This document shows positions 11,015 through 63,292 of a stretch of 64,000 bases of DNA, one piece after another. The position numbers were made by a program, and so were the translations under genes. Source of the stretch: a phage. The notes beneath the pieces were generated by a model. That model searched no databases. It was not told the DNA's origin and worked only from the letters and a program-made list of their open reading frames with translations. Each line of letters starts with the position of its first letter. Position 1 is the stretch's first letter. The DNA is taken from the NCBI GenBank assembly GCA_029945195.1, contig GCA_029945195.1_4117.1, one strand, 5' to 3'.

Positions 11015-11017
11015 TAT

Positions 11018-14537: not shown

Positions 14538-14549
14538 GTACTAAATAAT

Positions 14550-14580: not shown

Positions 14581-14584
14581 AAGT

Positions 14585-14612
14585 GGGACAACTTATAAAA
14601 ATATGATATAAT
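14585..14612 (+). promoter_or_regulatory. sigma70-type promoter (GGGACA-N16-TATAAT, extended -10)
   Basis: -10 TATAAT at 14607-14612 preceded by TGa; weaker -35 at 14585-14590. Confidence 0.5.
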
Positions 14613-14646
14613 AGTTAATGTACCAATATACATGGAGAGTATTAAA

Positions 14647-14925: not shown

Positions 14926-14927
14926 TT

Positions 14928-15584: not shown

Positions 15585-15587
15585 AAT

Positions 15588-17110: not shown

Positions 17111-17112
17111 AC

Positions 17113-17145
17113 GAAAAGGGAGAACATCAGTTCTCCCTTTTTTAT
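17113..17145. terminator. bidirectional rho-independent terminator between convergent genes
   Basis: aagggagaac-atca-gttctccctt hairpin flanked by an A-tract upstream and a T-tract downstream. Confidence 0.75.
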
Positions 17146-19109: not shown

Positions 19110-19193
19110 TTAAATATTTCCTCAGAATAGATTTATATGATGTATTTATTTTAGTTAAAAGAAAAGGCCAAGCATAGGCTTGACCTTAAAAAA

Positions 19194-29897: not shown

Positions 29898-30007
29898 AAT
29901 ATTTCCCTTGTATGAGTTAATGTCATATACCAATATTTATCAGTACAAAATACATTTCGTTATCATTAATAAATAAATGAAAGTTCACTACTAAAAGGGC
30001 TTAAACA

Positions 30008-35647: not shown

Positions 35648-35687
35648 GTTTATTAATTAGAGTGACGTGAATCACATAGGAGAATAC

Positions 35688-37976
35688 ATGAATCTTACTC
35701 AATTGTTCAAAAAAAGCGACGAACTGGCAACATCTCTAGGTCATACATTCTTGACTATTGACCACGTAAGTGCCACAGTACTGACTATTGATAGCATCAA
35801 GAACGTATTTGAAGATATGAACATTGATGCAGACAAACTGCACAACCGCCTGATGAACTATCTTAAAAATACAACAGTTCCACATGCACCAAAAAGTGTT
35901 AAAGATGAAGACGCGAATCGCACTTCACTTCTAGTGAATCGCGTTGTACATGAGCTTTCTAAAAAATCAGTTATTGAACAACTAAAAAGTGATGATTTTT
36001 CGATTGATGCATATTTTGTTCTATTCGAATGTCTGTCTTTCCCTAACACAGCACTAGAAGCTGCGTTAAAAGAAGAAGGTGTTAGCTGTACTGAAGCTGC
36101 ACGTGCATTACAGAAACACGTTGAGTCACTTGATAAGGGTATCAACTTACAAAGTATTAATGACGAACCGATTGGAGATAAAAAAGTGGCCCAACAGCAG
36201 CAATCATCTAAACAAAAAGGTTTGGAAGACTATACAACGAATCTAACTGCTCTTGCAAAAGAAGGCAAACTAGATCCTATGATTGGTCGCCAGAAAGAAT
36301 TGTCTGCATTGATTGAGACTCTTGCTCGCAAAACCAAAAAGAATGCTATTCTTACTGGTGAAGCTGGTGTAGGTAAAACACAAATCATCGACGGTCTTGC
36401 ACAAGCTATTGCTGACGGCAACGTACCTGAACACCTGAAAGACGTTGAAATTCTTTCACTAAATGTTGGTGCATTGACTGCTGGTACTAAGTATCGTGGT
36501 GAGTTTGAAGAACGCATCGACAATTTGCTAAAAGAACTAAAGAAACGTGAAAATACTATTGTTTTCATTGATGAAATTCATATTATGGTTGGGGCTGGTT
36601 CCGCAAGTAATGGTTCTATGGACATGAGCAATATGCTTAAGCCAGCACTTTCACGTGGTGAGATTCGTGTAATTGGTGCAACAACATATGATGAATATCG
36701 TAAAAATATCGAGAAAGATAGTGCATTAACTCGTCGTTTTATGAAAATTGATGTAGTTGAGCCGTCAATTGATGAAACTCGTGCAATTGTTAATGGTTTG
36801 AAACCAACTTATGAAAAATTCCATAATGTTGAGTTCACAACTGATGCAATGGATGCTGTAATTTCTCTCAGTGATAAATTCCTGAAGAATAAGCACTTCC
36901 CAGATAAAGCAATTGATCTAATGGACGCTGCTGCTGCAAAAGTTCGTTCACGTGACAACAATAGTAAGCTTATTACTGCCAATTTGATTCAAGAAGTTGT
37001 TGCTGGTATTGCCAATTTGGATATCAACGTGGTTGCATGTACTGAAAGTGATCGTATGCGTAATCTACCAGATGCACTACGCTCACGTGTATACGGTCAA
37101 GAGGAAGCTATTCAAAAATTAGTTGATAACGTGATGGTAGCTCGTGCAGGACTGCGTGACAAATCTAGTGTTCAGGGTGCATTTATGTTTGTTGGACCAT
37201 CTGGTACTGGTAAAACAGAAATTACCAAAGCATTAGCAGATGCAACTGGTGCGGAACTGATTCGCTTTGATATGTCAGAATTTTCTCAAGAACATACTGT
37301 TTCTAAACTAATTGGTTCACCTCCAGGTTATGTTGGGCATGATTCTGGTAACGGTTTACTGTTGGATAAAATTGAGCAGTTCCCTAATGCAGTACTGTTA
37401 CTTGATGAAATTGAAAAAGCAGATCGTAAAGTACTACTAACCTTCCTACAGGTTTTGGATGAAGGTCGCCTGACTGGTTCACAAGGTAAAACTGTATATT
37501 TTAATAACGTAACTGTTATTATGACTACAAACCTTGGTGCGGCAGATTCAACGAAGCGTAGCATTGGTATGAGCGGTAGTGATACTGCACAAGACAAGGC
37601 AATTAAAGCATTCTTGCCACCAGAGTTTATTAACCGTATTGATAGTATCGTTACGTTTAAAGACCTAAGCAGTGAAGCTATTGACAGCATCATTGATAAG
37701 TTCATGGGCAGTTTGAATGAACAAGTCAAAGACCGCAATGTTAAAGTTACATTGACAAAAGCTGCACGTGAATGGCTTGCGAAAAATGGGGTAAAAGTTG
37801 GTATGGGTGCACGTCCAATGAAACGTACCATTGAACAAAACATTCGTGTACCACTAGCTAAAGAAATGTTGTGTGGTTCACTTGTGAATGGTGGTAACAT
37901 TACATTTGATGTTATTGATGGTAAAATCGGTATTAAACCGAAACGTTCCAAAGCTGTAGATAAAGCACTGGCATAA
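35688..37976 (+). CDS. ClpA-type double-AAA+ unfoldase (Hsp100 family)
   Basis: ORF track start at 35667 is a GTG; the ATG at 35688 has an AGGAG RBS. D1 Walker A GEAGVGKT and Walker B IVFIDEIH; D2 Walker A GPSGTGKT and Walker [10 protein letters not shown]; sensor GARPMKR; no ClpB-type middle domain; IGM tripeptide at the position of the ClpA ClpP-docking loop. Confidence 0.8.
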
Positions 37977-38005
37977 AAAAAGAAAAGGAGAGCAATATGC
38001 TCTCC
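37975..38005. terminator. bidirectional rho-independent terminator
   Basis: ggagagca-ata-tgctctcc hairpin flanked by an A-tract and a T-tract; separates the convergent Clp-like and giant genes. Confidence 0.75.
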
Positions 38006-38012
38006 TTTTTTA

Positions 38013-41000
38013 TTACTTAACTAATAATATATTTTTAATATCATTACCACTAACTTGTAGACTATCAGTGTATACTGAAAGATCTATAGTGTAACTATTT
38101 TGTGTGTAACGTTTTAACATATCATAATTACCTAAATTAATTCCATTGAATGAATATGTAGTATTAAGTTTAAAATCATGTTCCGCACTATACATTACTC
38201 CACGGAGTAAATTATTTGCATTTCTAACTTCAACTTTTTCATATCCAATCGATATAATATCATTCATGTTCGCGGCAGAACCGGATAAAACATTATTTCT
38301 AATACTATAAGGACTTATTGATTTAGGTTGAGAAACATAGGTTGTATTTTCTTCACTAATGGTTGTGATGTTAGTAACCGTGCCACCAACAACACCGATG
38401 TACATACCGTCAACCATTGGATATCCATAAACCCATATACCTTCATTATTTCTAAACGGTTGAATAACACTTGAATCATATTCAATAACGTTGATTTCTA
38501 AACTATCAGTCATTTTAGTTCTTGCTAATTCACTAAGAACTCCCGCACCAGTAATTGGTAGGTTATAACCGTTGTCGATAGTAATTCCATCAACATCAAA
38601 TATTTCGTTAGAGATTATCCAAACGTCAACGTCATCTGGTGTTATTCCGTCATTGTACTTACCACCATTTAAAGTAGTATCGTAGAAAACATCATAATTA
38701 ATTACATCAATTGTGTAATTTCTATTTTGTTCGTACAATTTGATACCATTCTTCACAAATTCTGGGTCAGCAAATGTTCTAACACGAACAATGTTCAATG
38801 CAAGAGGCTGTACTGGCTCATTTTGTTGTGCAAGAGTGATATTATCATAACGGAGAACTGCACCAGTACTCTCATCAATCAATTCAATCGTTTCTTTACC
38901 TGTATTTCTTACAGTGAATAGGATCGGAGTTGTATTGTTTTTGATGTTAGATACACGCAAGATTGTTTCCCATGTGTGATTTTGATATCTCACGAAATCT
39001 TCACCATCAGGAGTGAAAATCATCACCTTATCACCATCAGATAGGTCATTGTCAACTATTTCTGCTTCAGTTAAGCTATTAATAGATCTCACACGATAGA
39101 AATATTTTTCATCAAACTTCGATGTTGTTTTATTAATATCATTTTCAATCTTAGCATATGAAGGAATACTAACAATTGCTTCTGTATGTTTATATGGATT
39201 GATAATTGCCATACCTTCAGTTTGATATCTGCTGTTATCACGTAATTGTACAAGAGATACATTGTCAAACCCATATCCATCAACTGTAAATCTAATTTGA
39301 CCAACATCACGCCCAGAAGGGTTTATGTCAGATATATCCACAATATAAGGATCAACTTCATCATCTTTAACTTCCCATTTTATTGAAGAAGTTTGAGATT
39401 CTAATGCTAGGTTATCAAATGCATTCATATCATTGAAGTACTTAGCTTCAGTAATACTATCAAGTATATATTGATAATCTGAATACATTGGGTTATTTTG
39501 ATCTAGTGGTAAATCATCTAGATTTATTTCAGCTAGTTCAATCATTTCACCATTTGTGATAAAATAATCTTCCATGAAATCATCAATACTTTGTTCATCA
39601 GGTATACTTTGATATACACCGTTAACATTTAAGTAAACATATTTTCGTGGAATCATTGTAATTGCATAGATATCAATTGGGGTTTTACTAAGAATCTCTT
39701 CAGCTTTTTCGTACTTATCAGTAGCGTCTTTGTCGAATAACCCTCTCATACCTGCTAATACGTGAATAGCATCAGTATAGAAACGGGTATCACCACCGAC
39801 TTCATCATAACGATAAACATATACACCATACTCAACTTCAAGTTTAACTTTTACTTCATAGTCTGATGCGTCAGGATTTTTATCTTTAATTAATGAAATA
39901 TATTTTTGATACAGTTCACTGCTTATTTCAAAATATCCATAGTTATAATCATTACTAGAAGAAAAGCCTAATGGAAGTCTAGTACTAGGATTGTCATTAT
40001 AAGTAAGTCCACTAAATCCACAACCAACTTCATCGTGAATTTTCTCATCACTTATATCTTTATAAAGTTTCAAACGGTTTGCCAATGTGTTATACTGAAC
40101 ATATTGTCTAAGGTCAGTAAACATATCGTTCTGCGTTGATTCTTTATAAACACGCTCCAATGTAGCAGTAAATTCATCAGTTGCTTCTAAATCTTCCGCA
40201 TGGTCTTTATACCACTGGTTAACACCATATGCTGTTCCTAATGTTACATCCAATTCTGGATAGTAGATTTGCATTTGATAAGCAATAAGAAGATCGAAAG
40301 TTTCTTCACTATATTCTGGGAAAGAATATATATAACGTTGTAATTCATAGTTACTAACAGCATCCTTTTCATTGGATTGATATTTGTTATTAACACTTAC
40401 TAATTCATTTATGCTTGCCAAATCTGCATTTGGTTTACATTGAATGTTATCGTAATGCATAATAATATCAATTTCTTGGAATCTTCTATTTGGTGTAATG
40501 AAATCACTTGGTAGTGAACCTACCTGTTCCCATTTTTGGGTAATTTCATTAAATTGAGCGTACTCATAATCCCAAATATCTTTTTCAGTTTTGACCCAAG
40601 AACCGTCAACGAAAATATATCCATTAGGATCTAAATCATTACACAGACCTTTTATTAAATCATCATCAGATGTCTTTTGCTCTATTTGTGAACGAATTTT
40701 AGTTCTATAAGGTTTAACTTCTTCAAAATATTCAACAATTTGATTAATCAAATTATCGTTTGAATAGTTTTGAACTAATGATTGTTCCAAACCAACAATA
40801 TAGATATATGATGTTTTAAATACCCAATCCACAACACTTTGTTCAACATGTACATATTTGACCATATCAAAAACAATTTCGCTTTGATGTAAATCGAAAG
40901 AATTTTTGAGTAAAGCTAGTGCTTTACGAACGTTGATTTCACGATTGCTTAGTGAACCATTATCATTATGAACACTATAATCTGCGTAAAGCATATCATT

Positions 41001-44000
41001 GAGTTCAACTGTACTGTTTTCACGACCAATCGCTTTCCAATAAATTGAATCGCGTGATTGTGATTTAATATACAATGTCCAAATGTTTTCACTATCGGTA
41101 ACTCTGATAATATCGCCAACTTGGTAGTTTTTAGTATTAGCATCTTCTAAGCTTGACTCTTGAGTATAAGTCGTGTTACTATCATACCCAACATCATACC
41201 AATCAGCATATGACCAGTACTGAGTCATGTCCAATGAAGTTCCCAGTGATTCAACATAATCAGATTGTTTAATCATTTTATGTTGACCCTCACCTTTGTT
41301 CTCTAACGTTATAGTAACAACACTACCCGCGTTTGCTGGACTATTCATTAACTGAATATATCCATTTTCGTCGAAGTGAATAAAATAAACAGCACTAGAA
41401 GTTAATGGATTTGGTAGATATCCACTAGTACTTAAAATAACAGCGTCATTTTCTTTAAATTTATCACTTTCAACTGCAATAACTAATTCATTATTGTAAG
41501 ACAATACACGGAAAGAAACTTCATTCGGATTAACTTCAGTGGTTTTAACATTAAACACATCTTCCATAACAACACTATTAGTGGTTATGTTTTGTGACCT
41601 ATAATAATTATTAGCACTTTCTACAAAGTTTCTACGAGCTTCTATAACATTTTGGAACCAAGTTTTGTTTGAACCTAAACCGTTATCAACATCTGGATAT
41701 AATAAATTAATCACAGAACCTGATTCAGTTGTTTCTTGACCAATTAGTGAGTTCCACATTGAATCCCAAATTAGTGGGTTAAAGTTATAGCTGTCACCTT
41801 CTTTACATAGTTGATACTGGTCATGTTTAACAACTTCAGTACTATCCATGTAATAAGAAACAGTTAAAATACTGGTATCATCATTCACTTTAAATTGCAT
41901 ATTACTAAGAATAAACGAGTTTTCATTGATTGGAGCGAACCAAGGAATGTTTAGCTGTGTTGGATCTTTAATAATACGAGCAATGTCAGTACATGATTTT
42001 GTTCTGGTATGTAGTGGTGGTACATAAATTGTATCACGTACCCAGAAATAGTATTTTGTCACATAACTATCAGTTGAACTATCATATTCCAAAAATGTAC
42101 TATAATTATCTTCAAGTGCAGTTCCACTTGGTAGATACATAGTATTATTTTTGTTTTTCTTAGCAACATCTTTACAGTATTTGTCCCAGTTATATGGCTC
42201 AACTGGTGAACAAACCCACTCTAACACATCAATTGTACTATGTGGTAATAAACGACCCCAGTTGTAACGTTTGTATTCATTGGTTGCATCAATGTCAACA
42301 TTACCGTCTGCGTCATAAATTGCACGAGTATAATCCAAATAAAATGCAGTGCTAGTGTTCCACCATACTTGACCAACTTTATCAGCACCCCAAGCCTGGA
42401 TTAACTCTCCATTACTATTATACTGTGCAGGATCAACTGGTGAAGTATATGTTACGTTTTGCATAGCCGCACCTGGAATAACACCATTAATTGGGTCATA
42501 AACGTTTAGATATAGCTCAGTAATGTTAGTACGTTCATCATATGTCGTTGGACGATCAAATAAAGTACTTTGTGGTGCTTTAAAACTATATTTCTTGTCA
42601 ATGTAAGCTTGACGTTCATCAGTACTGGCAAAACGTGATACATAACGATACAAACGTGGACGTGTATCTGGATCAGTAAATTCAATATCAATAGAAGTGT
42701 CAAATGGAACTACCATAACTTTAGGATCAGAACCAGCAGTATAATATTGACTTTCTACTGTTAAAGTATCTGGCATAAAGTTAGTTTCATCAACAAAATA
42801 ATAATAATCACCATCTTCAAGTGGTACATTATCAGTTAAAGTTACTTTACAAAATTGTTCAGCATACACATCGGTATTTTCAATAGGTGTTATAGAAACC
42901 ATTTGCACATTAGTATCAACCAATTCAAAAATGTTCCACAAACCATTACCGTCTTTAAACATCCACACAGATTCAGGATTTTCACCTTTACCATTAGTAT
43001 AAGTTATGCGGTCATTATATGCAGTACTGAAATCTTTTGTAGTGTAAGATACTTCATCCAATGTTACTGGACCAATATCTGGAAGTTGAATGTTTTCACT
43101 TCTTCCACTACGCATCGGGAATGAGAACTTACCATTTGGACGTGTAATCCAACGAGGATCTTTACCTTGTTCGCCGAAGTATACAATATTGTTTCCATTT
43201 CCATTTGAAGTAGCGTTTACATCAAAAGATACCATTTGTGGTTGTTGTTTAAATTGGTCATTGATTAGTTTAAATTGAAGGTTTTTCTTACCATCAATAT
43301 TACCATATGTACCAATTTTAAATGCCCATTCTTGTAATGCTTTATATTCATCAGTGTCATATGATTTAGAAACACGAAGTACACGTTCTAAAACTTGGTT
43401 AGTACCTTTATCGTGAATGAATCCTTTATAGAAATCAACACGACTAACATCACTACTAATCATACGCTGTAGATAATCACGAGATTGATAACCAATCAAA
43501 TGGTTTGACAACTCTTGTAATTGTACATCACTTACTGGAGTTTCACTATCATAATAATGTTGGAAATCCGACACTAATTTTTCAAATGATGGTAGTGTTC
43601 CAGCTTCCAAGATAATAAATCCAGGAGCTTGTAGGCGACCAGTCCATGAACCAGTAATATATCCATACATTTTAATTAGTTCTTGAATAGAACCATATGT
43701 TGGCTGATAAATGTAATCACCAAAAATAGTTTTATCATCAAAAATAACAGCATGTTCATATGAACACAAACTTAAACGAATCAATGCAATGCGTTTATTA
43801 GATTCTAAAGTTCTAACAGTGAAGATATTTCCAATACGAGAAGTTTCAATTTCATATTGGCGAATACCTTGGTTATTATCATCAAGTAATGACCATACAC
43901 CACCATTATTTTGCGTAATAGATTGTACTGAACCAAAGTCTGCCCCAAATTTAGCGTTTGCAGCACTTGGGGTACAAGAAATAAATTCACCAGTTACTAG

Positions 44001-47000
44001 AGAATTCTGACTCCAGATCACGAAATCTTTAGCAATAGTGTTCCAATCTTGTTGAGCACCACTATCATTTACATCTTCAAAAATCCAACCATGTTCTTTA
44101 AGATATTCACCATATCCACAAATAAAAGTATAAACTTCTTGGTAACTATTGAAAACTTTACCATATTCAATTGAAGCTTCAGACTTCCATTCATTATAAT
44201 GAACAACATTACGGTTTTCCAATTTAAGAGTTACTTTTCTACCATTTTTTACGGGAAGTTTATATTTAAATTTAGCACCAACTAGATCATATCCATCAAT
44301 CTGATATGCACTACCATTCCAAGTAATTTTGATCGCACTCATTTGCTCATCACGGATATTATTAGAACGAACAAGACCAATGGTTTGGTTTTCTTGTGAA
44401 ATAAGACCGAAAGATTTAGCATTGAATGTTAGCTGATCTGCTTTAGTAAATCCTCCAATTTTATGACCAACATTTATATAAGAAGAACGAACTACATCCC
44501 CATACTTGGTGGTAATATTTTTATTTTGATACATCAAATGGTCACTTACAAACATTTGATAACCAATGGTTCTTGTGCTATTTTCACCATGAACTACTGT
44601 ATTTTTATCAAAATTAATACGCTTACGTGTATCACCATAAAGGAATTGTGAACCATCAGTGAATACTTCTTTTAAGTTATCATTGCGGGTATCCCAGAAA
44701 TAGTTAGCAAATTGTGCTGGTTTAGCTTTATACAAAAGCATCATTTGGTCATATGCAAACAATGTAGTGTTCATGTATGTAAATTCCATGTCACCCATAT
44801 CACCATATGTCCAAGGTTCTGCTCTATGATTTAAAGATCCAGACACTAAACCTAAAATTTCAGGTGCAATATATTCAACCACACAAATATCAATACCAGA
44901 AGATGTTTTATTTCCAGTTTTTGTAATTTTGAATGGCTGTACACCAAATCTTTTATATTTGTCATATTGACCACGACGATCACCAAATAAAATAGTTCCA
45001 GTACTGCTATCGCCAATAGTTCCGTCAATATCCCAAAGACCACTAGGAACTAAATCACCTTGCTCATTCATAACAAGTGCTTCATATACATATACAACAT
45101 CACTATCACGTTCACCAACTTGAACAGCCGTTGGTTCGTATTCTTGGTTCCACCAAGTTGGACGTTGTGTAAAGCCAAACATTTCCCACGGATGGGTAGC
45201 TGGGCGATATGTACCATATTGGTCAGTGTAAATGGCACGCCATGAACCACGTGCAGGAATTTCAGTACTTTGACCATTAACTACATAATAAGTGCCAGTA
45301 TAGTTCCAAGTTCTCCAATTGTTAGGATCATAATCATGTGTACTATTACTGATACCATTAGTTGCGGTGAAGTTAATGTATCCACGTAGTAATAATGTTT
45401 GTTTCTCTTCAGCACTATATTCAGTTTTAGTGAAATATGGTGTAGGGAAAAGGTCATCACTATTCAATACTGGTACGTAATCAACATCTTTGAATTTATT
45501 ATCAATACTATTAAAAATTCTATTTTCTAATTCATATACAACATCATCCATTTTATCAACACCATTGATAACACGGTATGCTTTGGAAATAATACCAGTA
45601 TGACTGATGTTATAACAGCTTGGTTTACTACCAGCAGTGAGGAATGTCGCTTTTTCTGGTACATATGCTTGAAGAATACCTAAGAACTGTGGTGTTGGTG
45701 GTATAAATGCACGAATGAATCCAGAAGTACTTCCAACATTATCATAATAGAATGGGAATGAACTATCACGTCCCATATTAATAGTAGTTAAAATTGCATC
45801 AACAATGTTTGCAGCACTATTTTGTAAAAAGTCTGATGGATTTTCATCATACATACGAAGCATTTGTGTATTAAATTTATTAATGAATCTAAAATATTCA
45901 GATTGCATAAACATAGTTGCTTCAAATAAATCAATATCTTCATTTGCAGTATGTGCCATCAATGGAAGCATAGATGCTTCATTTTGGATAATTTTAGTAC
46001 CTACGCCATTATTAACCAATCCTTTAGCCAAACGTTCTTCATAGTCATTGAAATCATCAGAAGAACCACGTGTAATGTTCTTTTGAATAATATCCTGAAA
46101 ATGTAAAGTGTAGTCACCTTGGTTAATGTATATAATATTGGAATTGTATGGGTTATTTTGTAAGTTAATTGGAACTTCATATGCACCTAATTCTTTATTA
46201 GGAGTTACAGTACTGCTATAAGTTCTAATTTGAATAACTGAATCTTCATCCAAATCTACAGTGCTATCTAAGGTGATACTTTGAACTTGACCTTTTGATA
46301 CATTTTTGGTATATTTTGATACATCAACACCATCAACAACAACTTCAATTATGTCAGAATCATTATCTAAAACTTTTTGTGCTAATTCGAATGTGTGGTC
46401 ATATTTTACAATCTGAACACCATCACCAGTGATTGGATGCCAGTCTAGATAAGTTTCGCGGTCTGCTTTATAGTACTGATAGGTTCTATCAACTTCAATA
46501 ACATATGCATACATACCATCAACTGGTTCTTTAAAAACTTCCATATCATAAACAGTACTGAATACACGATACATATCAGTACGTTTGACTTGTGGAGTTT
46601 GTTTTACAAATTGTTTAGAGTACTCTTCTGAACGAACCCAATCGGTTTGAAGATTCATTTCATTATTTTCATCAATAATGTTATAATAGTATAAACCATC
46701 AATTTCAACTTCTTTTCCAAGATGGTCATAGGTATAACGTTGGGATTGTAAAAAGTTTTCATAAATGTAATAATTATAATCACCAAGTTCAATGTTATAT
46801 CCATATACACTATCAGTTGCATAGTTGTAATTTATTTTAAAACCAAACAACTCTGAACCTTTAAAGTTACTTGATGGATATGTAGTACTGTTGTCAAGTT
46901 TGATACCATTACGATCATAAAGTTGGAATTTAGGGAATACGTTAACACTAGTTTTTGATTGTGCACGAACCCACAAAGAACCATTCCAGTACATAGAACT

Positions 47001-47984
47001 ATTACCATACTCATTACCTTTAGTGATTAGAACAACATCACCATCTTGAGGTTCACCACTTGGGCGTGATTCGGTTTCTTCTTCTGGATCTAGTGCTAAA
47101 CCATAAACACGAGTACCATCTTGCATTTTTTTCACATATACATTATAAATTCTATTGTTTTCACCATTGTTACCAATACTGGTGAATAGAATACGCATTC
47201 CATCTTGCGGAATAATACCATCAATACGTATACCACTATTAATATCTTTTTGAACGATATCTTCAGGTTTAATAATATCAGAGAACAGATCAACAGTTCC
47301 ACGGAATTTTGTACCGTAGTTAATTAGCTCAATATTTTTATTATATTCAATAATTGGTGCACGTGCACGAATAAAACGTGAATCTTGCATTAATTCTTCA
47401 GTTAATATTGAGCCATCTTCTAATGTTTCACCTAAAGTATACCAAAAGTTTTGTAGTGACCATGTATTACCATTAAGTGCTCCACGTTCCATTACAATGT
47501 AATCAGGTGAAGTAATATTATAAGAGTTTTTAGTATCCCAAAGATATGAGCTAAAATTGTTCATTTTATTTGGGTTAATAGCTGGAGTCCATGCATAAAA
47601 CTTACCGTTGAACAAACGGCTTTCATTATCGGTTAGTGCTCCATAATGATTCATGTATCCAACTAGATCATCATAAAATTGAATTGAACGAATTGTCGAA
47701 TCATCATTTTTTGAGACGTAAGCAGTGGACAACTGATAAAGTTGACGTGCTACAGTACTTTCATGTAAGAAGATATTACCAGCAGCGGCAGGAGAACCCA
47801 TATCACCAATATAGCCGTCAACTAATTCGTTTTCAGCCGGATTAAACCATTGTTGAATAACATCATCACTGACTTTTTGAATATCTTCTAAGCCTTGCAT
47901 CCACTCAGGCAATCTTTTAATAAAAAGCTTCTTCTGTACTGCTTCAGCCATCTGTGTAGGTTGAAACTTAAAATTATTAGTCAT
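38013..47984 (-). CDS. giant virion protein (~3,320 aa), probably baseplate or fibre-associated
   Basis: Uninterrupted frame of ~10 kb; the ATG at 47984 has a GGAG RBS (ORF track ATG at 48014 lacks one); sits directly downstream of the gp6-like and gp25-like genes; no motif recognised by eye. Confidence 0.6.
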   Translation of the reverse strand: MTNNFKFQPTQMAEAVQKKLFIKRLPEWMQGLEDIQKVSDDVIQQWFNPAENELVDGYIGDMGSPAAAGNIFLHESTVARQLYQLSTAYVSKNDDSTIRSIQFYDDLVGYMNHYGALTDNESRLFNGKFYAWTPAINPNKMNNFSSYLWDTKNSYNITSPDYIVMERGALNGNTWSLQNFWYTLGETLEDGSILTEELMQDSRFIRARAPIIEYNKNIELINYGTKFRGTVDLFSDIIKPEDIVQKDINSGIRIDGIIPQDGMRILFTSIGNNGENNRIYNVYVKKMQDGTRVYGLALDPEEETESRPSGEPQDGDVVLITKGNEYGNSSMYWNGSLWVRAQSKTSVNVFPKFQLYDRNGIKLDNSTTYPSSNFKGSELFGFKINYNYATDSVYGYNIELGDYNYYIYENFLQSQRYTYDHLGKEVEIDGLYYYNIIDENNEMNLQTDWVRSEEYSKQFVKQTPQVKRTDMYRVFSTVYDMEVFKEPVDGMYAYVIEVDRTYQYYKADRETYLDWHPITGDGVQIVKYDHTFELAQKVLDNDSDIIEVVVDGVDVSKYTKNVSKGQVQSITLDSTVDLDEDSVIQIRTYSSTVTPNKELGAYEVPINLQNNPYNSNIIYINQGDYTLHFQDIIQKNITRGSSDDFNDYEERLAKGLVNNGVGTKIIQNEASMLPLMAHTANEDIDLFEATMFMQSEYFRFINKFNTQMLRMYDENPSDFLQNSAANIVDAILTTINMGRDSSFPFYYDNVGSTSGFIRAFIPPTPQFLGILQAYVPEKATFLTAGSKPSCYNISHTGIISKAYRVINGVDKMDDVVYELENRIFNSIDNKFKDVDYVPVLNSDDLFPTPYFTKTEYSAEEKQTLLLRGYINFTATNGISNSTHDYDPNNWRTWNYTGTYYVVNGQSTEIPARGSWRAIYTDQYGTYRPATHPWEMFGFTQRPTWWNQEYEPTAVQVGERDSDVVYVYEALVMNEQGDLVPSGLWDIDGTIGDSSTGTILFGDRRGQYDKYKRFGVQPFKITKTGNKTSSGIDICVVEYIAPEILGLVSGSLNHRAEPWTYGDMGDMEFTYMNTTLFAYDQMMLLYKAKPAQFANYFWDTRNDNLKEVFTDGSQFLYGDTRKRINFDKNTVVHGENSTRTIGYQMFVSDHLMYQNKNITTKYGDVVRSSYINVGHKIGGFTKADQLTFNAKSFGLISQENQTIGLVRSNNIRDEQMSAIKITWNGSAYQIDGYDLVGAKFKYKLPVKNGRKVTLKLENRNVVHYNEWKSEASIEYGKVFNSYQEVYTFICGYGEYLKEHGWIFEDVNDSGAQQDWNTIAKDFVIWSQNSLVTGEFISCTPSAANAKFGADFGSVQSITQNNGGVWSLLDDNNQGIRQYEIETSRIGNIFTVRTLESNKRIALIRLSLCSYEHAVIFDDKTIFGDYIYQPTYGSIQELIKMYGYITGSWTGRLQAPGFIILEAGTLPSFEKLVSDFQHYYDSETPVSDVQLQELSNHLIGYQSRDYLQRMISSDVSRVDFYKGFIHDKGTNQVLERVLRVSKSYDTDEYKALQEWAFKIGTYGNIDGKKNLQFKLINDQFKQQPQMVSFDVNATSNGNGNNIVYFGEQGKDPRWITRPNGKFSFPMRSGRSENIQLPDIGPVTLDEVSYTTKDFSTAYNDRITYTNGKGENPESVWMFKDGNGLWNIFELVDTNVQMVSITPIENTDVYAEQFCKVTLTDNVPLEDGDYYYFVDETNFMPDTLTVESQYYTAGSDPKVMVVPFDTSIDIEFTDPDTRPRLYRYVSRFASTDERQAYIDKKYSFKAPQSTLFDRPTTYDERTNITELYLNVYDPINGVIPGAAMQNVTYTSPVDPAQYNSNGELIQAWGADKVGQVWWNTSTAFYLDYTRAIYDADGNVDIDATNEYKRYNWGRLLPHSTIDVLEWVCSPVEPYNWDKYCKDVAKKNKNNTMYLPSGTALEDNYSTFLEYDSSTDSYVTKYYFWVRDTIYVPPLHTRTKSCTDIARIIKDPTQLNIPWFAPINENSFILSNMQFKVNDDTSILTVSYYMDSTEVVKHDQYQLCKEGDSYNFNPLIWDSMWNSLIGQETTESGSVINLLYPDVDNGLGSNKTWFQNVIEARRNFVESANNYYRSQNITTNSVVMEDVFNVKTTEVNPNEVSFRVLSYNNELVIAVESDKFKENDAVILSTSGYLPNPLTSSAVYFIHFDENGYIQLMNSPANAGSVVTITLENKGEGQHKMIKQSDYVESLGTSLDMTQYWSYADWYDVGYDSNTTYTQESSLEDANTKNYQVGDIIRVTDSENIWTLYIKSQSRDSIYWKAIGRENSTVELNDMLYADYSVHNDNGSLSNREINVRKALALLKNSFDLHQSEIVFDMVKYVHVEQSVVDWVFKTSYIYIVGLEQSLVQNYSNDNLINQIVEYFEEVKPYRTKIRSQIEQKTSDDDLIKGLCNDLDPNGYIFVDGSWVKTEKDIWDYEYAQFNEITQKWEQVGSLPSDFITPNRRFQEIDIIMHYDNIQCKPNADLASINELVSVNNKYQSNEKDAVSNYELQRYIYSFPEYSEETFDLLIAYQMQIYYPELDVTLGTAYGVNQWYKDHAEDLEATDEFTATLERVYKESTQNDMFTDLRQYVQYNTLANRLKLYKDISDEKIHDEVGCGFSGLTYNDNPSTRLPLGFSSSNDYNYGYFEISSELYQKYISLIKDKNPDASDYEVKVKLEVEYGVYVYRYDEVGGDTRFYTDAIHVLAGMRGLFDKDATDKYEKAEEILSKTPIDIYAITMIPRKYVYLNVNGVYQSIPDEQSIDDFMEDYFITNGEMIELAEINLDDLPLDQNNPMYSDYQYILDSITEAKYFNDMNAFDNLALESQTSSIKWEVKDDEVDPYIVDISDINPSGRDVGQIRFTVDGYGFDNVSLVQLRDNSRYQTEGMAIINPYKHTEAIVSIPSYAKIENDINKTTSKFDEKYFYRVRSINSLTEAEIVDNDLSDGDKVMIFTPDGEDFVRYQNHTWETILRVSNIKNNTTPILFTVRNTGKETIELIDESTGAVLRYDNITLAQQNEPVQPLALNIVRVRTFADPEFVKNGIKLYEQNRNYTIDVINYDVFYDTTLNGGKYNDGITPDDVDVWIISNEIFDVDGITIDNGYNLPITGAGVLSELARTKMTDSLEINVIEYDSSVIQPFRNNEGIWVYGYPMVDGMYIGVVGGTVTNITTISEENTTYVSQPKSISPYSIRNNVLSGSAANMNDIISIGYEKVEVRNANNLLRGVMYSAEHDFKLNTTYSFNGINLGNYDMLKRYTQNSYTIDLSVYTDSLQVSGNDIKNILLVK

Positions 47985-48030
47985 TTTTGGACTCCATATA
48001 ATTCGTTCATTCATTTGATTTATTTATGAT

Positions 48031-48056
48031 ATAAAAAAGGCGTTCCGAAGAACGCC
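48031..48056 (-). terminator. UUCG-tetraloop hairpin terminator between the gp6-like and giant genes
   Basis: On the minus strand: ggcguuc-UUCG-gaacgcc followed by a U-tract. Confidence 0.6.
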
Positions 48057-48063
48057 CGTTATA

Positions 48064-51000
48064 TTAAGAACCGATATTAATATTACTTTTAGCTAGTGAG
48101 TTAACAATTTGAACATTTTCAACAGATGCAGTACTCAAGAATATTTGGTCTGAACGTGAAGGGATTTCAAATAGAGAACCAAATTTTGAATTTGGATTTT
48201 GTGCAACTATAACAATAGTACTAATATGTCTACCTAACTGTGAGTGTATGTAAGTACACAAATCAGTATAATAGAAACTTTCACCGAAATCCCAGTTATC
48301 AACATTGAAGTATTCATTAGTTAATGCTATGACATTTTGACGAATTTCATCATCACTCATTGTGCTGTTTGGTAATTTCACTACTTTAAAATCAGCTTTG
48401 TAATCTTCAGCAGCACTGTTTCCAAATAAAGGTAAGTACTCAGCACTATGCCAAATGATACTATCACTAATGACTATTTTTTGTTCAACATCTTTGAACA
48501 TATCTTTTAATTCAACCGATGTTGGTGGTTTAGGAATACTACCAACAGCATTATTTTTCAACCAAACGTCAACTTCAGTTTTATATGAATTGGTTAATAC
48601 ATACATATCAATTAAGTTTGTTCTACTAGGATCAATGCGATTGTCGTCAGGTGCATAGTGTTTCCAATGGAAGTCTATACTAGTACGTGCATTAGTTTTA
48701 ACAGTGTACTGTGAAGTAACATCTTTGTATCCATAATAATCTAGCTTCTGATTCTCGTCAGCATTAGTTCCCATGTTATTAATTGCACGATAAAAAGCCA
48801 ATTCAGGACTAACAGTGCCAGTATCATCGGAATAAGTTAAATTACTAATTAGTTGTCCCAAACGATCATTGTTATTGCCAACTGTTTGTTCAATAAAATA
48901 ATATTTACCATCATAGTTAAAACCAACTAAAAATCCAGAACCTTTACTATATAATCCACTCAATGTGGTTGAACGAATTGCGTTATTTCTAACAAATTCA
49001 GTTCTTTTATATGCATTCGGCTCTGCCAAAGCTTGTTCCATTGTATAAGACCACGATGAATCAAGAAGTGTGAAGGTATCATTTGGTAACGACAGTACTG
49101 ATATAGTGAAATCACTATTTTCCTGAAATACCAAAATACCACCATATTTTAATGCATCGGTTCCAGTCCAAGTAGGAACAATTTCTTTAAATTGGTTTGG
49201 TTCCAATGGTATACCATTACTATCTACTTTCCTAGATGTAACAATAACACGAGAACCATCTAGATAGCCATTCTCTTGTTGAATTGTGTCATAAATTTGA
49301 AAATCTATATTACTTGTCAACCCTGAATTACTACTACTAGTAGTGTTAGATGATAAAATTTCAATCTTATCACTTTGAACTGTACCAGTACTTATATCAG
49401 TAATTTTTTTAGATGATACAAAGTAAAATCTTACTTTTTCTCCACCCACAAAAATATATTCAATACCGTTAGCATCAAATTCCCAAGTTTCTGCTGTATA
49501 TTTTACATTTATTATAATTAAAACTTCATTACCATTATACACAATAGTATCGTCATTAGTACTTGCTTCGATTGGAACCCATGAAGTTGTTTCTTTATCA
49601 TGTACAATTACAAAATCGGTTTTTTTATCCAACATAGCAGAAATAGACTGAACTTCAACTGTGTTAAATCGAGTTCTATATGGTAATATGTACTCTATTG
49701 CTTGCATTCCACTAGGAACAGATGTGCTTAGTACATAAAAACCATTATCTAACACACTTACAACACTTGCCCATATCGTAGTACCAGAATTAGAAAATTT
49801 AATAAGAGTACCTACCTGATACGAACCATACACTGTTCCAGACGAACCCAAAATTCTGCCATATGTATTGGTTGTGTAATTTGAATTGTACACTGGAGTC
49901 CATGCTTGTTGTATTTCAATACCAATTGTATTGGATGGATACGCTTGATAACGTTGTATTACTGCATTTTCCCCAATCAATGGTTGAATATTGTCAATAA
50001 CAATACTAGCATTTGTTTTTGTAGTTGGGAGCAATAACGATCTATTAAATTGCGTGTTTTCTTGATATAATGCACCATCATCACTAAAAACGTCGGTATT
50101 CTGATACTTACCAGTAGGATCATTGATATCAATGAACCTTGATTGACCACTATAAATTCTATTAATAGCTTTAGATTTAAGTACTGTATTTCCTAAACTA
50201 AGTGGTGCTATATTATAATCTTCACCATTGACAAAACGGTTTTGGGTATAGTACATTTGTGGTGCACGTGCTTTAATCTGCTCAATAGTTTCAGCACTTT
50301 GTGCACGGTCGGACTCATATTGTAATGAAAAACGTATATCCAATGTACTAGATTCATAACTTGACTGTGTTTTTGTACGATATGTATATTTTACGCTTTT
50401 ATTTTGAATTTCAGAAGTTTTAATGTTATATGTTTTACCATTACTAACACGATACCATACACGGAACGTCCCACGGGGAACAACACCACTTCTTGAGTCT
50501 GGGTACTTAATTGTTATTTGGTCTTTATCACGAGTAGTAACAGCAAAAATTGTTTTTAATTGACGATTAACAGTGTTATATGCAATACTTTCCATTGATG
50601 GAACTTTTGTCCATTTGGTACGAACAATACCATCTTCATTTATTTCTTGAACCCATACATCAGTTTCGTTGATATTATCAACGTTAATATCTTGTATACG
50701 GTTCTCTTCACGGATAGCATATTGATAATCTTGATATGTTAATGTACCTTGTACGAAATATACAAAAAACCCAGTATTTGGTGAGCTAAATCCATTACCA
50801 TCATTTTGATAAACAATATATTTTTGCTCTTGTGGTTCTGGATGTCGTTCTTCAACACCAACAGACGTAATGTCAGGATTCACTACTTCAAATGTCATAG
50901 ATTCACCATTGACAGTTGCAATAAATGGAATACTGGGTGCTGTCATTGGGATGGTGTTCATTCGATATAGTTGACGGGAGACACCATTAACATCAATACG

Positions 51001-51525
51001 CTTGACTGGATTACCAAATTGGTTAGTACTGACAAATGAACTGTTCATTACTAGAATAAAGTTTTCATACCAGTTAGCATCCATCGGGTCATTCCAACGA
51101 ATAATTTTATCTTTTAATGATTCATTAAAACTATTACGAACATCTTGGTTTGTTTTAATTTCGGTTAATTTAGCAACTGCACGACCTGGATATGAGCGGC
51201 GTGGTGAGTAAGAAATCATTTTAGCTAGTTTTAGTACTGATGCACGACGAGTTGCAGTATCTAAAAAGTTTTCACGTGTGTTCAAATCCATACGAAATGC
51301 CAAGTTCTGACCTAGCATAGAAATCGTATCTAAAATAAAAATAAACTGGTCGTTTTCGATCCAGTCATTGAATGAGTCTGGGTAAGTTGCACGTAGATAA
51401 TCAATCATACTCTGACGGATAGTGTCGAAATCATAAGCTGTTAGATTGATTTTATAAAAACTTTCATATACTTGAGTCCAATCCTCACCAGCGTATAAAT
51501 TTGATTGCCTTTTTTGTTGTGACAT
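48064..51525 (-). CDS. baseplate wedge protein (gp6 / Baseplate_J-like)
   Basis: 1153 aa; position immediately after the gp25-like gene, plus size, suggests gp6; AAGGA RBS. Confidence 0.5.
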   Translation of the reverse strand: MSQQKRQSNLYAGEDWTQVYESFYKINLTAYDFDTIRQSMIDYLRATYPDSFNDWIENDQFIFILDTISMLGQNLAFRMDLNTRENFLDTATRRASVLKLAKMISYSPRRSYPGRAVAKLTEIKTNQDVRNSFNESLKDKIIRWNDPMDANWYENFILVMNSSFVSTNQFGNPVKRIDVNGVSRQLYRMNTIPMTAPSIPFIATVNGESMTFEVVNPDITSVGVEERHPEPQEQKYIVYQNDGNGFSSPNTGFFVYFVQGTLTYQDYQYAIREENRIQDINVDNINETDVWVQEINEDGIVRTKWTKVPSMESIAYNTVNRQLKTIFAVTTRDKDQITIKYPDSRSGVVPRGTFRVWYRVSNGKTYNIKTSEIQNKSVKYTYRTKTQSSYESSTLDIRFSLQYESDRAQSAETIEQIKARAPQMYYTQNRFVNGEDYNIAPLSLGNTVLKSKAINRIYSGQSRFIDINDPTGKYQNTDVFSDDGALYQENTQFNRSLLLPTTKTNASIVIDNIQPLIGENAVIQRYQAYPSNTIGIEIQQAWTPVYNSNYTTNTYGRILGSSGTVYGSYQVGTLIKFSNSGTTIWASVVSVLDNGFYVLSTSVPSGMQAIEYILPYRTRFNTVEVQSISAMLDKKTDFVIVHDKETTSWVPIEASTNDDTIVYNGNEVLIIINVKYTAETWEFDANGIEYIFVGGEKVRFYFVSSKKITDISTGTVQSDKIEILSSNTTSSSNSGLTSNIDFQIYDTIQQENGYLDGSRVIVTSRKVDSNGIPLEPNQFKEIVPTWTGTDALKYGGILVFQENSDFTISVLSLPNDTFTLLDSSWSYTMEQALAEPNAYKRTEFVRNNAIRSTTLSGLYSKGSGFLVGFNYDGKYYFIEQTVGNNNDRLGQLISNLTYSDDTGTVSPELAFYRAINNMGTNADENQKLDYYGYKDVTSQYTVKTNARTSIDFHWKHYAPDDNRIDPSRTNLIDMYVLTNSYKTEVDVWLKNNAVGSIPKPPTSVELKDMFKDVEQKIVISDSIIWHSAEYLPLFGNSAAEDYKADFKVVKLPNSTMSDDEIRQNVIALTNEYFNVDNWDFGESFYYTDLCTYIHSQLGRHISTIVIVAQNPNSKFGSLFEIPSRSDQIFLSTASVENVQIVNSLAKSNINIGS

Positions 51526-51591
51526 AATTTATTCCTTTAAATCAGTAAAGTACTAGTTCAGTACTGGGAATTATATATAGAAATATTTATT

Positions 51592-51620
51592 CAAAAAGAA
51601 AAGCACTCCGAAGAGTGCTT
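51592..51620 (-). terminator. UUCG-tetraloop hairpin terminator
   Basis: On the minus strand: aagcacuc-UUCG-gagugcuu followed by uucuuuuug. Confidence 0.55.
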
Positions 51621-51626
51621 TTATAA

Positions 51627-52022
51627 TTATAAAGACGAAACTGAATATGTTGCCATTCGGTTATTACTTCTAGCATCAAATACAATAGTAAGTTCTTCTA
51701 ATGCATCTAATACTACATACTCTAATACGATGTTCATTTGATAACCATATTCTATTCTTGAAATTTGCAATTTCTTGAGATTCAATCTTGGATCTAAGCT
51801 AATTATTCTACGGGCATCTGCTTCTAAAAGGTTGATAGTATTATAACCTTCTAGTTCAAATAACAAATCCCATGCAATAAAACCATAGTCCGCATCAAAT
51901 GCTCTTTCGCCTTTTTTTGTGTTAAAATGATTCATTAAATCTTGACGAACCAGTTCACTATCATACAATGTTTCGGTTCTACCCACAACAGGAGTATGAA
52001 ATCCTTTAAAAACAACTGCCAT
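51627..52022 (-). CDS. baseplate wedge protein (gp25-like)
   Basis: 131 aa; KKGERAFDADYGFIAWDLLFE resembles the conserved gp25/GPW core (T4 gp25 GSRPFDPEFGCDLSDQLFE, from memory). Confidence 0.65.
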   Translation of the reverse strand: MAVVFKGFHTPVVGRTETLYDSELVRQDLMNHFNTKKGERAFDADYGFIAWDLLFELEGYNTINLLEADARRIISLDPRLNLKKLQISRIEYGYQMNIVLEYVVLDALEELTIVFDARSNNRMATYSVSSL

Positions 52023-52525: not shown

Positions 52526-52561
52526 AAAGATATCCTCGTTTTATTTATAGTGCTAAAATAT

Positions 52562-57499: not shown

Positions 57500-57814
57500 T
57501 TAGCCTATGTTTCGAGTACCATTAAGATAATTCTGTACTCTTTGATTTGCTGGTATTCTAATTGTTACTCCACTTTTAAAATTATATATAGGATCTTCTC
57601 CTAGTATGTCTGGATTTAACAATGCGAAAATATAATATAAGCGTTCATTACCATACATTTCGTATGCTAAACGCCAAGGTTGATATTCATATTTCAATGG
57701 GATCTCATAAAAATCATCAGTATCAGCCGGAACAATATCACGTGGTAAATTATACCCAAGATACCATGTTTGTTTCACCTTAGCGTAAGGTGAGTATTGA
57801 CTATAGTTGGACAT
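57500..57814 (-). CDS. hypothetical small protein in baseplate operon
   Basis: 104 aa; strong AAAGGAGGA RBS; start overlaps the stop of the upstream gene. Confidence 0.5.
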   Translation of the reverse strand: MSNYSQYSPYAKVKQTWYLGYNLPRDIVPADTDDFYEIPLKYEYQPWRLAYEMYGNERLYYIFALLNPDILGEDPIYNFKSGVTIRIPANQRVQNYLNGTRNIG

Positions 57815-58545
57815 TAAATGAATCCTCCTTTACGTAATAGTTCACCACGTTTGAATGCATTGAGGTTGAACGTTTTAGTCATATAATCCGATGTTGGTTG
57901 TTCTTCAAGTTGTAACATAACTGAGATTTTTTGTGGAACCCAAACTTCATCTTGTGGGTTCATATATCCAGTACTTCTAAGTTGTTCGAAGAATTTTCTA
58001 CTATCCATGTCGGATAAATTAAAAGTACTATCGCTACTATTCAATGGAACTTGAATATAAGAAACATCATTTGGGTAAGTAAAATTATAAGATTTTAAAA
58101 TAACAGGAATATCATTATATGTATAACGACCATATCCACTTAGAAGTAAGATTGGTGGTGGTGCACCCGCAATTGCGAGTTCGGGGTTATTAGCCGAAGC
58201 AGCTTGTCTACCAAAATCCATCAATGAAACAGAACGTATAAAATGAACACATGCCAACGCATACATAGCTTCTGCTGCTGTATTTGCATAAAATTCACCC
58301 TGAATAGTGAAAACTGTATTAGTAGTGTTCTTATAGTTGTTATAGTTACTGTTGGTATGTATAGGAGACTGTGTTTCATACTGAATTGACCTTTGTTCAG
58401 TAATTGTTGGTGTTACAGTCCAAACCAACCCATTAGTTGGACGCAGAAACGAAAGTAGTGTTGGTTCGGAGCTATCCCCGAAATCACCATATACATAGTT
58501 AGCACCTGCGGCTTTAGGTCGTAATCGAATTCTACGATCAATCAT
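57814..58545 (-). CDS. hypothetical baseplate-associated protein
   Basis: ORF track extends to 58635 using a TTG start; the first ATG (58545, MIDRRIRL...) has a GGAG RBS; stop overlaps the next gene's start. Confidence 0.45.
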   Translation of the reverse strand: MIDRRIRLRPKAAGANYVYGDFGDSSEPTLLSFLRPTNGLVWTVTPTITEQRSIQYETQSPIHTNSNYNNYKNTTNTVFTIQGEFYANTAAEAMYALACVHFIRSVSLMDFGRQAASANNPELAIAGAPPPILLLSGYGRYTYNDIPVILKSYNFTYPNDVSYIQVPLNSSDSTFNLSDMDSRKFFEQLRSTGYMNPQDEVWVPQKISVMLQLEEQPTSDYMTKTFNLNAFKRGELLRKGGFI

Positions 58546-58676
58546 CTTTTTGATTCTCCATAATAAGGGAACATTTGATGTATTTATACGTGGGACAAAA
58601 TGCTTTTTGGTGCTATAATAACATTGATGGTACAAGGATTGTACCTATTGGATTTAAACATGGAGAGTAAAATACA

Positions 58677-63200: not shown

Positions 63201-63292
63201 AATTCCTCACCAAACTATTTGTTATCAAAATATTTATAGATTAGTTATTTGCAATATTTTAAGTACTTAATGAATATTTTTATAAAAATAGT

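Follow-up and report, generated by a model that had tools for sequence, protein, structure and literature searches.

A giant virion protein encoded after the gp25- and gp6-like baseplate genes of a 121Q/RaK2-type jumbo phage: most likely a novel type of scaffold for the outer baseplate wedge

What does one reading frame of about 10 kb contribute to the baseplate operon of a jumbo phage? The question is raised by a 64,000-nt stretch of phage DNA (GenBank assembly GCA_029945195.1, contig GCA_029945195.1_4117.1; the whole of it is referred to here as the window), in which a giant gene on the minus strand directly follows genes for gp25-like and gp6-like proteins. Its product is a single 382-kDa virion protein of a jumbo phage of the 121Q/RaK2 type, the evidence for its presence in virions coming from orthologues. 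The open reading frame (ORF) and its virion association are already known from databases and two proteome papers. The anatomy and size of the whole family, the strict gp25-gp6-giant synteny, the negative tests against T4 gp7, gp8 and gp10, the apparent novelty of the folds, the arrangement of promoter and hairpin in front of the gene, and the assignment of a role are new. Because the gene follows gp25 and gp6, belongs to a family of equally giant proteins, and specifies a product without likeness to any solved structure, this product most likely represents a novel type of scaffold in the outer part of the baseplate wedge.

The minus strand from nt 48014 to nt 38013 is one open frame of 3,333 codons plus a stop, without interruption (residue numbers for parts of the protein are counted from the ATG at nt 48014). 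Computed from the base composition of the region, the probability of 3,333 codons without a stop is about 1e-121; the remaining five frames contain 163–593 stops, and the G+C content at codon positions 1, 2 and 3 of the giant frame is 0.45, 0.33 and 0.20. The likeliest start is the second in-frame ATG, at nt 47984 (M11), which is the first residue in homologues and in PHROG 10938, and is also where the preliminary description of this DNA had the gene begin (38013–47984). The ATG at nt 48014 has no Shine-Dalgarno sequence and lies only 6 nt past a promoter-like motif (see below), so the intervening codons are probably untranslated.

nt 38013–47984, minus strand: giant coding sequence from the likeliest start, 3,323 aa plus stop, 381.8 kDa, pI 4.6
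nt 47992–47995, minus strand: GGAG Shine-Dalgarno sequence, 7 nt before the ATG at 47984, read from the sequence
nt 47985–48014, minus strand: ten extra in-frame codons up to the first ATG, probably untranslated

The uninterrupted 10-kb frame and the product of about 3,320 aa that had been described are thus borne out, as is the absence of obvious internal repeats, none being found by self-BLAST at E=10. The protein is acidic, aromatic-rich and beta-rich, without the long helices typical of ejection or tape-measure proteins. That several genes had been run together by sequencing errors is excluded, since all 35 phage records covering at least 80% of the gene keep the frame open, and a single giant frame was present in all 80 metagenomic loci examined (sampled as described below). 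A sequencing artefact was rejected on the same evidence.

At the nucleotide level, the giant gene matches gene 582 of Escherichia phage 121Q (Asteriusvirus) at 99.0% identity along its entire length (100%), and the corresponding genes of PBECO4, phAPEC6, SP27 and others at 98.8–98.9%; the window as a whole shares 99% identity with 121Q. The flanking genes are those of 121Q. Orthologues include 121Q gp582, RaK2 ORF070, CBB_236 of Pectobacterium phage CBB, and phAPEC6 gp245; GenBank and RefSeq label the gene 'hypothetical' or 'virion structural protein'. PHROG 10938 matches residues 11–3330 to its profile positions 1–3324 (5,791 bits), and this family, which is also the 'largest ORF' of Rak2-like phages, is the giant protein itself, annotated only as 'virion structural protein'. 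Mass spectrometry of purified phAPEC6 virions detected gp245 (381.88 kDa) with 17 unique peptides (PMC7247149), and CBB_236 was detected in CBB virions with 21 peptides (PMC5259590). Orthologues at 58–99% identity are therefore present in the particles of two phages, the 58% being that between the giant protein and CBB_236 (sequence P0030). Peptide coverage was low (7.6–7.7%) in both proteomes (PMC7247149, PMC5259590), which is compatible with a low-copy protein, coverage not having been compared with copy number. No functional or structural study of the giant protein was found in the literature searched, where it appears only in proteome tables and as the 'largest gene' that anchors genomes, the largest ORF of Rak2-like phages being used for their orientation (PMC5259590).

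Several records annotate the orthologous region oddly (NC_027399 of K64-1, MH494197 of CMSTMSU, OQ411014 of EJP2 and PP408249 of PAC2). It is split into 12 and into 5 hypothetical proteins in two GenBank records, the EJP2 orthologue is named 'D-alanyl-D-alanine carboxypeptidase', and that of a PA5oct-like phage 'chitin-binding type-3 domain protein'. The aberrant K64-1, CMSTMSU, EJP2 and PAC2 annotations probably reflect annotation or sequencing problems.

The giant gene is the last gene of a baseplate operon. Upstream of it, on the same strand and in order of transcription, lie genes for a 273-aa structural protein, a gp53-like protein, a 749-aa structural protein, a gp5-like hub/lysozyme, a second lysozyme, and the gp25-like and gp6-like proteins, the last two being:

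nt 51627–52022, minus strand: gp25-like gene, 131 aa (Pfam PF04965, E 1.5e-8)
nt 48064–51525, minus strand: gp6-like baseplate wedge gene, 1,153 aa (PHROG 219/10646, 'baseplate wedge subunit'), immediately upstream of the giant gene

The generality of this order was assessed in 80 divergent metagenomic jumbo-phage loci, taken from at least 596 IMG/VR loci that carry the motif [TS]xPWEM[LF]G[FYL], which falls in the conserved core of the giant protein. The gp25-like, gp6-like and giant genes are immediately adjacent in 77 of the 80, and two of the three exceptions have no DNA upstream of the giant gene. A gp5-like hub gene lies upstream in 57 loci and a gp53-like gene, further upstream, in 26, while a homologue of the 749-aa protein is detectable in 20 and one of the 273-aa protein in 21. 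Among distant relatives, the gp6-like gene mostly runs almost directly into the giant gene. The position after gp25-like and gp6-like genes, noted in the preliminary description, consequently holds both in the window and in 77 of 80 loci, and its suggestion that the gene occupies the place of the wedge proteins of T4-like baseplates is supported by gene order, the slot being the one taken by gp7 and the peripheral wedge proteins. The gene next after gp25 and gp6 in contractile tails encodes the third, peripheral wedge subunit (gp7 in T4, gpI in P2, TssG in T6SS, the type VI secretion system).

The giant protein and some of its operon neighbours belong to PHROGs (10938, 11190, 12050 and 11591) that are filed under 'head and packaging'. 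Their position among gp53-, gp5-, gp25-, gp6- and gp15-like genes indicates tail/baseplate proteins, not head proteins.

Relatives of the giant protein are numerous and equally large. A search of 5.8 billion proteins returned 195, and among the 120 matches listed all are giant (2,780–5,638 aa). With residues 11–1045 as the query, HMMER found 984 clusters (50% identity) at E <= 1e-3 among 1.84 billion cluster representatives, of which 557 reached E <= 1e-30; among the matches listed, almost all members are 2,000–7,307 aa in length, and the few short ones may be contig-end fragments. Complete copies in the 80 loci range from 2,241 to 4,762 aa. Cultured carriers include RaK2-like enterobacterial phages, Vibrio phage 2.275.O, the Pseudomonas PA5oct group, Agrobacterium phage Atu_ph07 and Xanthomonas phages.

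Comparison of these proteins divides the chain into a widely conserved core and a distal part found in close relatives:

nt 40635–47939, minus strand: conserved core, aa ~26–2460, nine collinear blocks shared with relatives at 24–31% identity
nt 42555–42872, minus strand: main insertion hot spot, aa ~1715–1820, with up to ~1,700 extra residues in relatives, FG-GAP_2 repeats among them
nt 38016–40517, minus strand: C-terminal ~830 aa (aa ~2500–3333), RaK2-like relatives only

Blocks 1–5 of the core span aa 26–165, 165–475, 555–765, 765–965 and 1050–1270, and blocks 6–9 span aa 1270–1470, 1470–1715, 1820–2145 and 2255–2460. Besides the main hot spot, relatives carry insertions near aa 165 and 765, and modules of the CBM5/12 (carbohydrate-binding) and FG-GAP_2 types are found at the insertion sites. 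The smallest complete members (2,241–2,434 aa) still hold blocks 1–7 or 1–8, and no family member, either in the 80 loci or in the protein library, was seen to carry the blocks as separate small proteins. As relatives are equally giant and share the same collinear blocks, the great size is ancestral to a very large family, and is neither specific to this phage nor the result of a recent fusion. The C-terminal ~830 aa evolve about twice as fast as the core and remain collinear: over the same pairs, the core is 65–90% identical and the C-terminus 38–65% (~85% and ~65% against protein P0003, ~65% and ~38% against the CBB protein). Across 73 phage records from at least eight host genera, the C-terminal 833 aa match only the orthologous gene, once per genome, at 38–99% identity, a pattern which indicates that this part is vertically inherited.

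The two shortest complete members come from IMG/VR loci L057 (a contig of 516,805 bp; nt 9962–17263, 2,434 aa) and L074 (nt 5652–12374, 2,241 aa). The former stops right after block 8, is followed by an overlapping 740-aa ORF, and has no detected gp25 or gp6 genes upstream; the latter ends where the near-identical locus L075 continues. Both may be split genes or frameshifts.

Known folds were sought in two AlphaFold2 models, each built from a 23-row alignment. Model 1 (aa 11–1045) has a mean predicted local distance difference test score (pLDDT) of 82.4 and a predicted template modelling score (pTM) of 0.65; model 2 (aa 1046–2245) has a mean pLDDT of 69.5 and a pTM of 0.47, and is well predicted at residues 170–390 and 530–1010 of its tile. 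Both are strings of small domains rich in beta structure, plus a few helical segments. Foldseek returned no match at E <= 0.001, the best being TSP4 of phage CBA120 (E 0.077). No match came from searching the PDB by sequence, whether with the single protein, with a 64-sequence N-terminal profile or with a 20-sequence full-length profile. Scans of Pfam, NCBIfam and PHROGs with the whole protein and nine overlapping tiles, at lenient thresholds, recovered only its own PHROG; the lone Pfam hint was RNA_pol_Rpb2_1 (E 0.062, 13 bits against a 28-bit cut-off). Over two thirds of its length the protein thus has no convincing similarity to any solved structure, and its predicted folds are apparently new. 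One segment stands out at the N-terminus:

nt 47739–47924, minus strand: N-terminal segment, aa 31–92, conserved, low-confidence helices, candidate partner-dependent interaction region

Helices, those at model residues 21–47 among them, are predicted in the first ~90 residues with a pLDDT of only about 30–62 (34–62 for model residues 21–90), and the conservation of these residues equals or exceeds the mean of the protein, P26, G57, G60 and R80 being invariant. Such a combination would be expected of a segment whose folding depends on a partner, and the segment is possibly a core-bundle helix pairing with the gp6-like protein.

Taken together, these data favour, with modest confidence, a reading in which the giant protein is the third wedge subunit in the position of gp7, enlarged into a multidomain scaffold of ~380 kDa that builds most of the baseplate periphery unaided. 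The giant subunit would stand next to two gp6-like copies, in the slot filled by gp7 in T4, gpI in P2 and gp128 in phiKZ. Its helical N-terminal segment would join the N-terminal helices of the two gp6-like subunits, with gp25 capping the bundle; the core of ~2,400 aa would form a rigid outer wedge linking neighbouring wedges, defined loops of which take lineage-specific insertions (carbohydrate-binding modules and FG-GAP repeats in relatives); and the C-terminal ~830 aa would lie distally or outward, for tail fibre docking or contact with the cell surface. In Pam3 and phiKZ the wedge consists of two gp6-like subunits and one peripheral subunit, and the N-terminal helices of all three make up the core bundle (PMC9942802, PMC13250141); the docking sites for fibres in Pam3 are on the peripheral subunit (PMC9942802). 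If the gp7-slot reading holds, each virion should contain about six copies. By simple arithmetic, six giant copies amount to ~2.3 MDa and twelve gp6-like copies to ~1.6 MDa, which is plausible for the 35–36 nm baseplates reported for RaK2 and CBB (CBB: PMC5259590). The gradient of conservation and the insertions fit a buried core with exposed decorations. No other gp7 candidate is visible: gp7, gp8 and gp10 are all absent from the T4 homologues listed for CBB (PMC5259590), and neither the 749-aa nor the 273-aa protein matches the gp7 profile.

Several points weigh against this assignment. Comparisons of sequence, profile and fold brought up no similarity to T4 gp7 or any other gp7-like protein, so the gp7 slot is assigned from gene order and the absence of alternatives. 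Model 2 has long low-confidence stretches, the two models span aa 11–2245 of the 3,333, and fold searches with whole multidomain models are less sensitive for each domain. The only tail reconstruction of a close relative is at 25 Å (PMC7247149). Finally, either the 749-aa or the 273-aa protein of the operon could be the true third wedge subunit.

The last point leads to the alternative that survives best, although it is rather unlikely: that the giant protein is a peripheral baseplate or fibre-network protein mounted on the wedge and not a core subunit, with the 749-aa or 273-aa protein playing gp7. It would then form an outer ring or arm, comparable to phiKZ's outer peripheral region or to the arms of the phage 812 baseplate. 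The failure to detect a gp7-like fold or sequence in the giant protein is as this alternative would have it, the outer baseplate of phiKZ is made of separate large proteins (PMC13250141), and the two operon proteins are conserved in relatives and have no assigned role. Yet the adjacency of the giant gene to the gp6-like gene is invariant, often to the point of abutting, and suggests a stoichiometric partner, whereas homologues of the 749-aa and 273-aa proteins are found in 20 and 21 of the 80 loci, against 77 for the gp25/gp6/giant trio. Neither protein matched the gp7 profile in hhalign.

The two proteins concerned, encoded on the minus strand at nt 55239–57488 (749 aa) and nt 57814–58635 (~243–273 aa), are conserved virion structural proteins of the operon; neither has a Pfam, PDB or gp7-profile match, and in distant jumbo-phage loci their homologues are placed alike. 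Searching the PDB by sequence with the gp6-like and 749-aa proteins gave nothing useful. The 273-aa ORF is a mechanical call from a TTG, and its true start is probably later, because a TATAAATA motif lies inside it (nt 58581–58588) and 121Q annotates 243 aa.

A second alternative, that the protein serves mainly in host recognition as a giant adhesin, or as a secondary receptor-binding protein, on the underside or rim of the baseplate, its size suited to binding surface polysaccharides, is improbable. It could draw on the CBM5/12 and FG-GAP repeats of relatives, the chitin-binding annotation of one PA5oct-like record and the faster evolution of the C-terminus. The protein of the window, however, has no carbohydrate-binding or enzymatic Pfam domain of its own, and no repeats or fibrous signature, and some 75% of it is conserved among phages whose hosts are as far apart as Pseudomonas, Agrobacterium and Vibrio. 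Its C-terminal 833 aa have descended vertically in phages of E. coli, Klebsiella, Erwinia, Yersinia, Serratia, Cronobacter and Pectobacterium, single-copy in each genome and without exchange with other proteins, in contrast to typical receptor-binding modules. The adsorption proteins of RaK2 have been mapped to gp098 and gp526–534, not to ORF070. A classical tail fibre or tailspike was likewise rejected, as there is no fibrous or repetitive architecture, beta-helix or enzymatic domain, and the distal module is not exchanged.

The preliminary description had proposed that the giant protein may be a fusion of several baseplate or tail functions. A fusion of T4-like wedge proteins (gp7, gp8, gp10 and others) in one chain has become very improbable. 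The position of the gene in the baseplate operon would suit such a fusion, as would a marginal match to the gp10-like N-terminal domains of CBA120 TSP4, and 382 kDa is roughly what several T4 peripheral wedge proteins weigh together. Direct comparison gave no evidence for it. Pfam families PF21428, PF21456 and PF21427 are all present in each of 120 T4 gp7 homologues among the matches listed, and none of the three was found in the giant ORF, either as a whole (E <= 0.01) or in nine overlapping tiles (E <= 5). An hhalign comparison of 20 giant proteins with an 18-sequence gp7 profile gave a probability of 0.09%, with T4 gp7 alone 0.2–0.6%, and with T4 gp8 and gp10 less than 1%. Fold searches failed to retrieve gp7 (5hx2, 5iv5, 9f4a_AY), though its structures are present in the PDB copy used. 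The nine Pfam tiles gave no gp7, carbohydrate-binding or enzymatic domain, and no catalytic fold was seen in the models of aa 11–2245. In no relative were the blocks seen spread over separate genes; even the smallest complete members keep blocks 1–7 or 1–8. The T4 homologues reported for CBB (gp4, 6, 13, 15, 17, 18, 20, 21, 23, 25 and 53) likewise include none of gp7, gp8 and gp10 (PMC5259590).

The weakest alternative, an internal or ejected virion protein (such as an N4-type virion RNA polymerase or an ejection protein) lying beside baseplate genes by coincidence, could point to a size comparable to that of N4 gp50 and to the virion association of orthologues, but it is scarcely credible given the strict synteny with gp25 and gp6, the composition of the protein, the RNA_pol_Rpb2_1 hint far below cut-off, the absence of a polymerase or catalytic fold or Pfam match in aa 11–2245, and a T4-like late sigma factor encoded by the phage itself. 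On these same grounds a virion polymerase was rejected (no polymerase fold or Pfam match in aa 11–2245), as was a tape-measure protein (beta-rich, without the long helices typical of that class).

If the giant protein is the enlarged third wedge subunit, its nearest counterpart is T4 gp7 (PDB 5hx2, 5iv5), which has the same place directly after the gp6 homologue, in an operon with gp53-, gp5- and gp25-like genes, and is likewise a large multidomain virion wedge protein; the giant protein would be, like it, a low-copy backbone of the periphery. It is, however, 3.2 times longer than gp7 and lacks detectable sequence, profile or fold similarity to it. The T4 periphery also needs separate gp8, gp9, gp10, gp11 and gp12, while no homologue of gp7, gp8 or gp10 has been reported for the phage group with the giant protein. 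P2 gpI, Pam3 gp23, phiKZ gp128 and T6SS TssG occupy the same slot (gp25-like, gp6-like, then the subunit in question) and are a few hundred residues long, whereas the giant protein has 3,323 aa, ~2,400 of them conserved, and no Pfam match to the families of these four. Its predicted helical N-terminal segment could enter the core bundle as in such minimal gp7-like subunits, the peripheral subunit of Pam3 and phiKZ lying at the periphery with fibre docking sites (PMC9942802, PMC13250141). The likeness to the N-terminal gp10-like (XD) domains of CBA120 TSP4 and to the N-terminal adaptor domains of the podovirus fibres T7 gp17 and P-SCSP1u gp28 is confined to ~75–100 residues at 16–21% identity, below the usual level of significance; the rest of the protein is unrelated, with nothing pointing to a trimeric spike. 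The jumbo phages phiKZ (gp27, gp139, gp130 and others) and Goslar also have a very large, fibre-bearing baseplate periphery, but that of phiKZ is assembled from many separate proteins of up to ~900 aa in multiple copies, in contrast to one 3,323-aa chain conserved as a unit.

These comparisons raise the more tentative possibility, judged well short of even, of a third, hitherto undescribed way to build the periphery of a contractile baseplate, in which each wedge has one conserved chain of ~2,400 residues of mostly new folds. Taken jointly with that proposal, and at the same tentative level, the chain would replace the T4 set of the gp7/gp8/gp9/gp10/gp11 type or the multi-protein star of phiKZ, and would dock on the gp6-like dimer while fixed loops accept carbohydrate-binding or propeller modules.

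The giant gene is set apart from the gp6-like gene by expression signals:

nt 48038–48057, minus strand: C(UUCG)G tetraloop hairpin with an 8-bp stem, then a T run; terminator-like, between the gp6-like and giant genes
nt 48021–48028, minus strand: CATAAATA, T4-type late-promoter-like element, 37 nt upstream of the start codon, after the hairpin
nt 37983–38009, minus strand: 12-bp hairpin and T run, 3 nt past the giant stop codon; terminator-like operon end

The hairpin at nt 48057–48038 (GGGCGTTC-TTCG-GAACGCCT followed by the T run; in RNA form, GGGCGTTC-UUCG-GAACGCCU) was noted in the preliminary description and sits 6 nt past the gp6-like stop codon; UUCG tetraloop hairpins are a known feature of T4 intercistronic regions. 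Either attenuated read-through or a separate promoter had been suggested from it, and CATAAATA between hairpin and start codon favours the latter. The motif [ACT]ATAAATA, which looks like a T4-type late promoter, has 13 copies in the window, nine of which precede a gene start on the same strand in the ORF table by 17–59 nt, the copies before the gp6-like and giant genes being among them; a tenth falls in this range if the annotated 121Q start of the 273-aa gene is used. Exact TATAAATA is under-represented in the window overall (3 found, ~10 expected). Copies of the motif are located as follows:

nt 48021–48028, 51584–51591, 52542–52549, 52559–52566, 58581–58588 and 63231–63238, minus strand: [ACT]ATAAATA motifs
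nt 178–185, 6965–6972, 7490–7497 and 29968–29975, plus strand: [ACT]ATAAATA motifs
nt 19143–19150, minus strand: [ACT]ATAAATA motif

The late sigma factor gene lies at nt 58677–59516 on the plus strand; in T4 such a factor acts with the host polymerase. In RaK2 and in metagenomic locus L002 a hairpin is retained at the equivalent site with other stem and loop sequences, followed by AATAAATA in RaK2 and TATAAATA in L002, and then by GGAG-ATG in both. The arrangement of hairpin and promoter is not general, as the motif occurs in the gp6-like/giant gap in only 2 of the 77 distant loci, where the two genes mostly abut. The giant gene, then, probably has its own promoter, and a separate late promoter with an upstream terminator or attenuator is the better-supported reading of the sequence for the RaK2-like clade, though not family-wide. 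Transcription would probably be late, from the gene's own NATAAATA-type promoter just past the hairpin that ends or attenuates the gp6-like transcript.

Two further observations concern the neighbourhood. The gap between the gp25-like and gp6-like genes holds a second C(UUCG)G hairpin (nt 51599–51622, minus strand, 10-bp stem), followed by AATAAATA; the same gap in 121Q contains an HNH homing-endonuclease gene (584, 'associated with group I intron') that is absent from the window. Convergent with the end of the giant gene is a gene for a ClpA-like AAA ATPase (nt 35667–37976, plus strand), an unusual companion for a tail/baseplate module, which is also the neighbour in RaK2 (ORF069) and in locus L002.

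The jumbo myoviruses of the RaK2, 121Q, PA5oct and Atu_ph07 groups have no recognisable homologues of gp7, gp8 or gp10, and the giant gene probably supplies their answer to building and triggering a baseplate. Its product is among the largest phage proteins known, with about 1,000 divergent relatives in metagenomes. The gene is a well-defined target for cryo-electron microscopy and genetics and a useful marker for this jumbo-phage clade, and the sites at which insertions are tolerated are a candidate place for host-range determinants. If the giant chain does represent a third way of building the baseplate periphery, its gene would be the structural hallmark of a very large jumbo-phage clade from the environment (~1,000 clusters at 50% identity).

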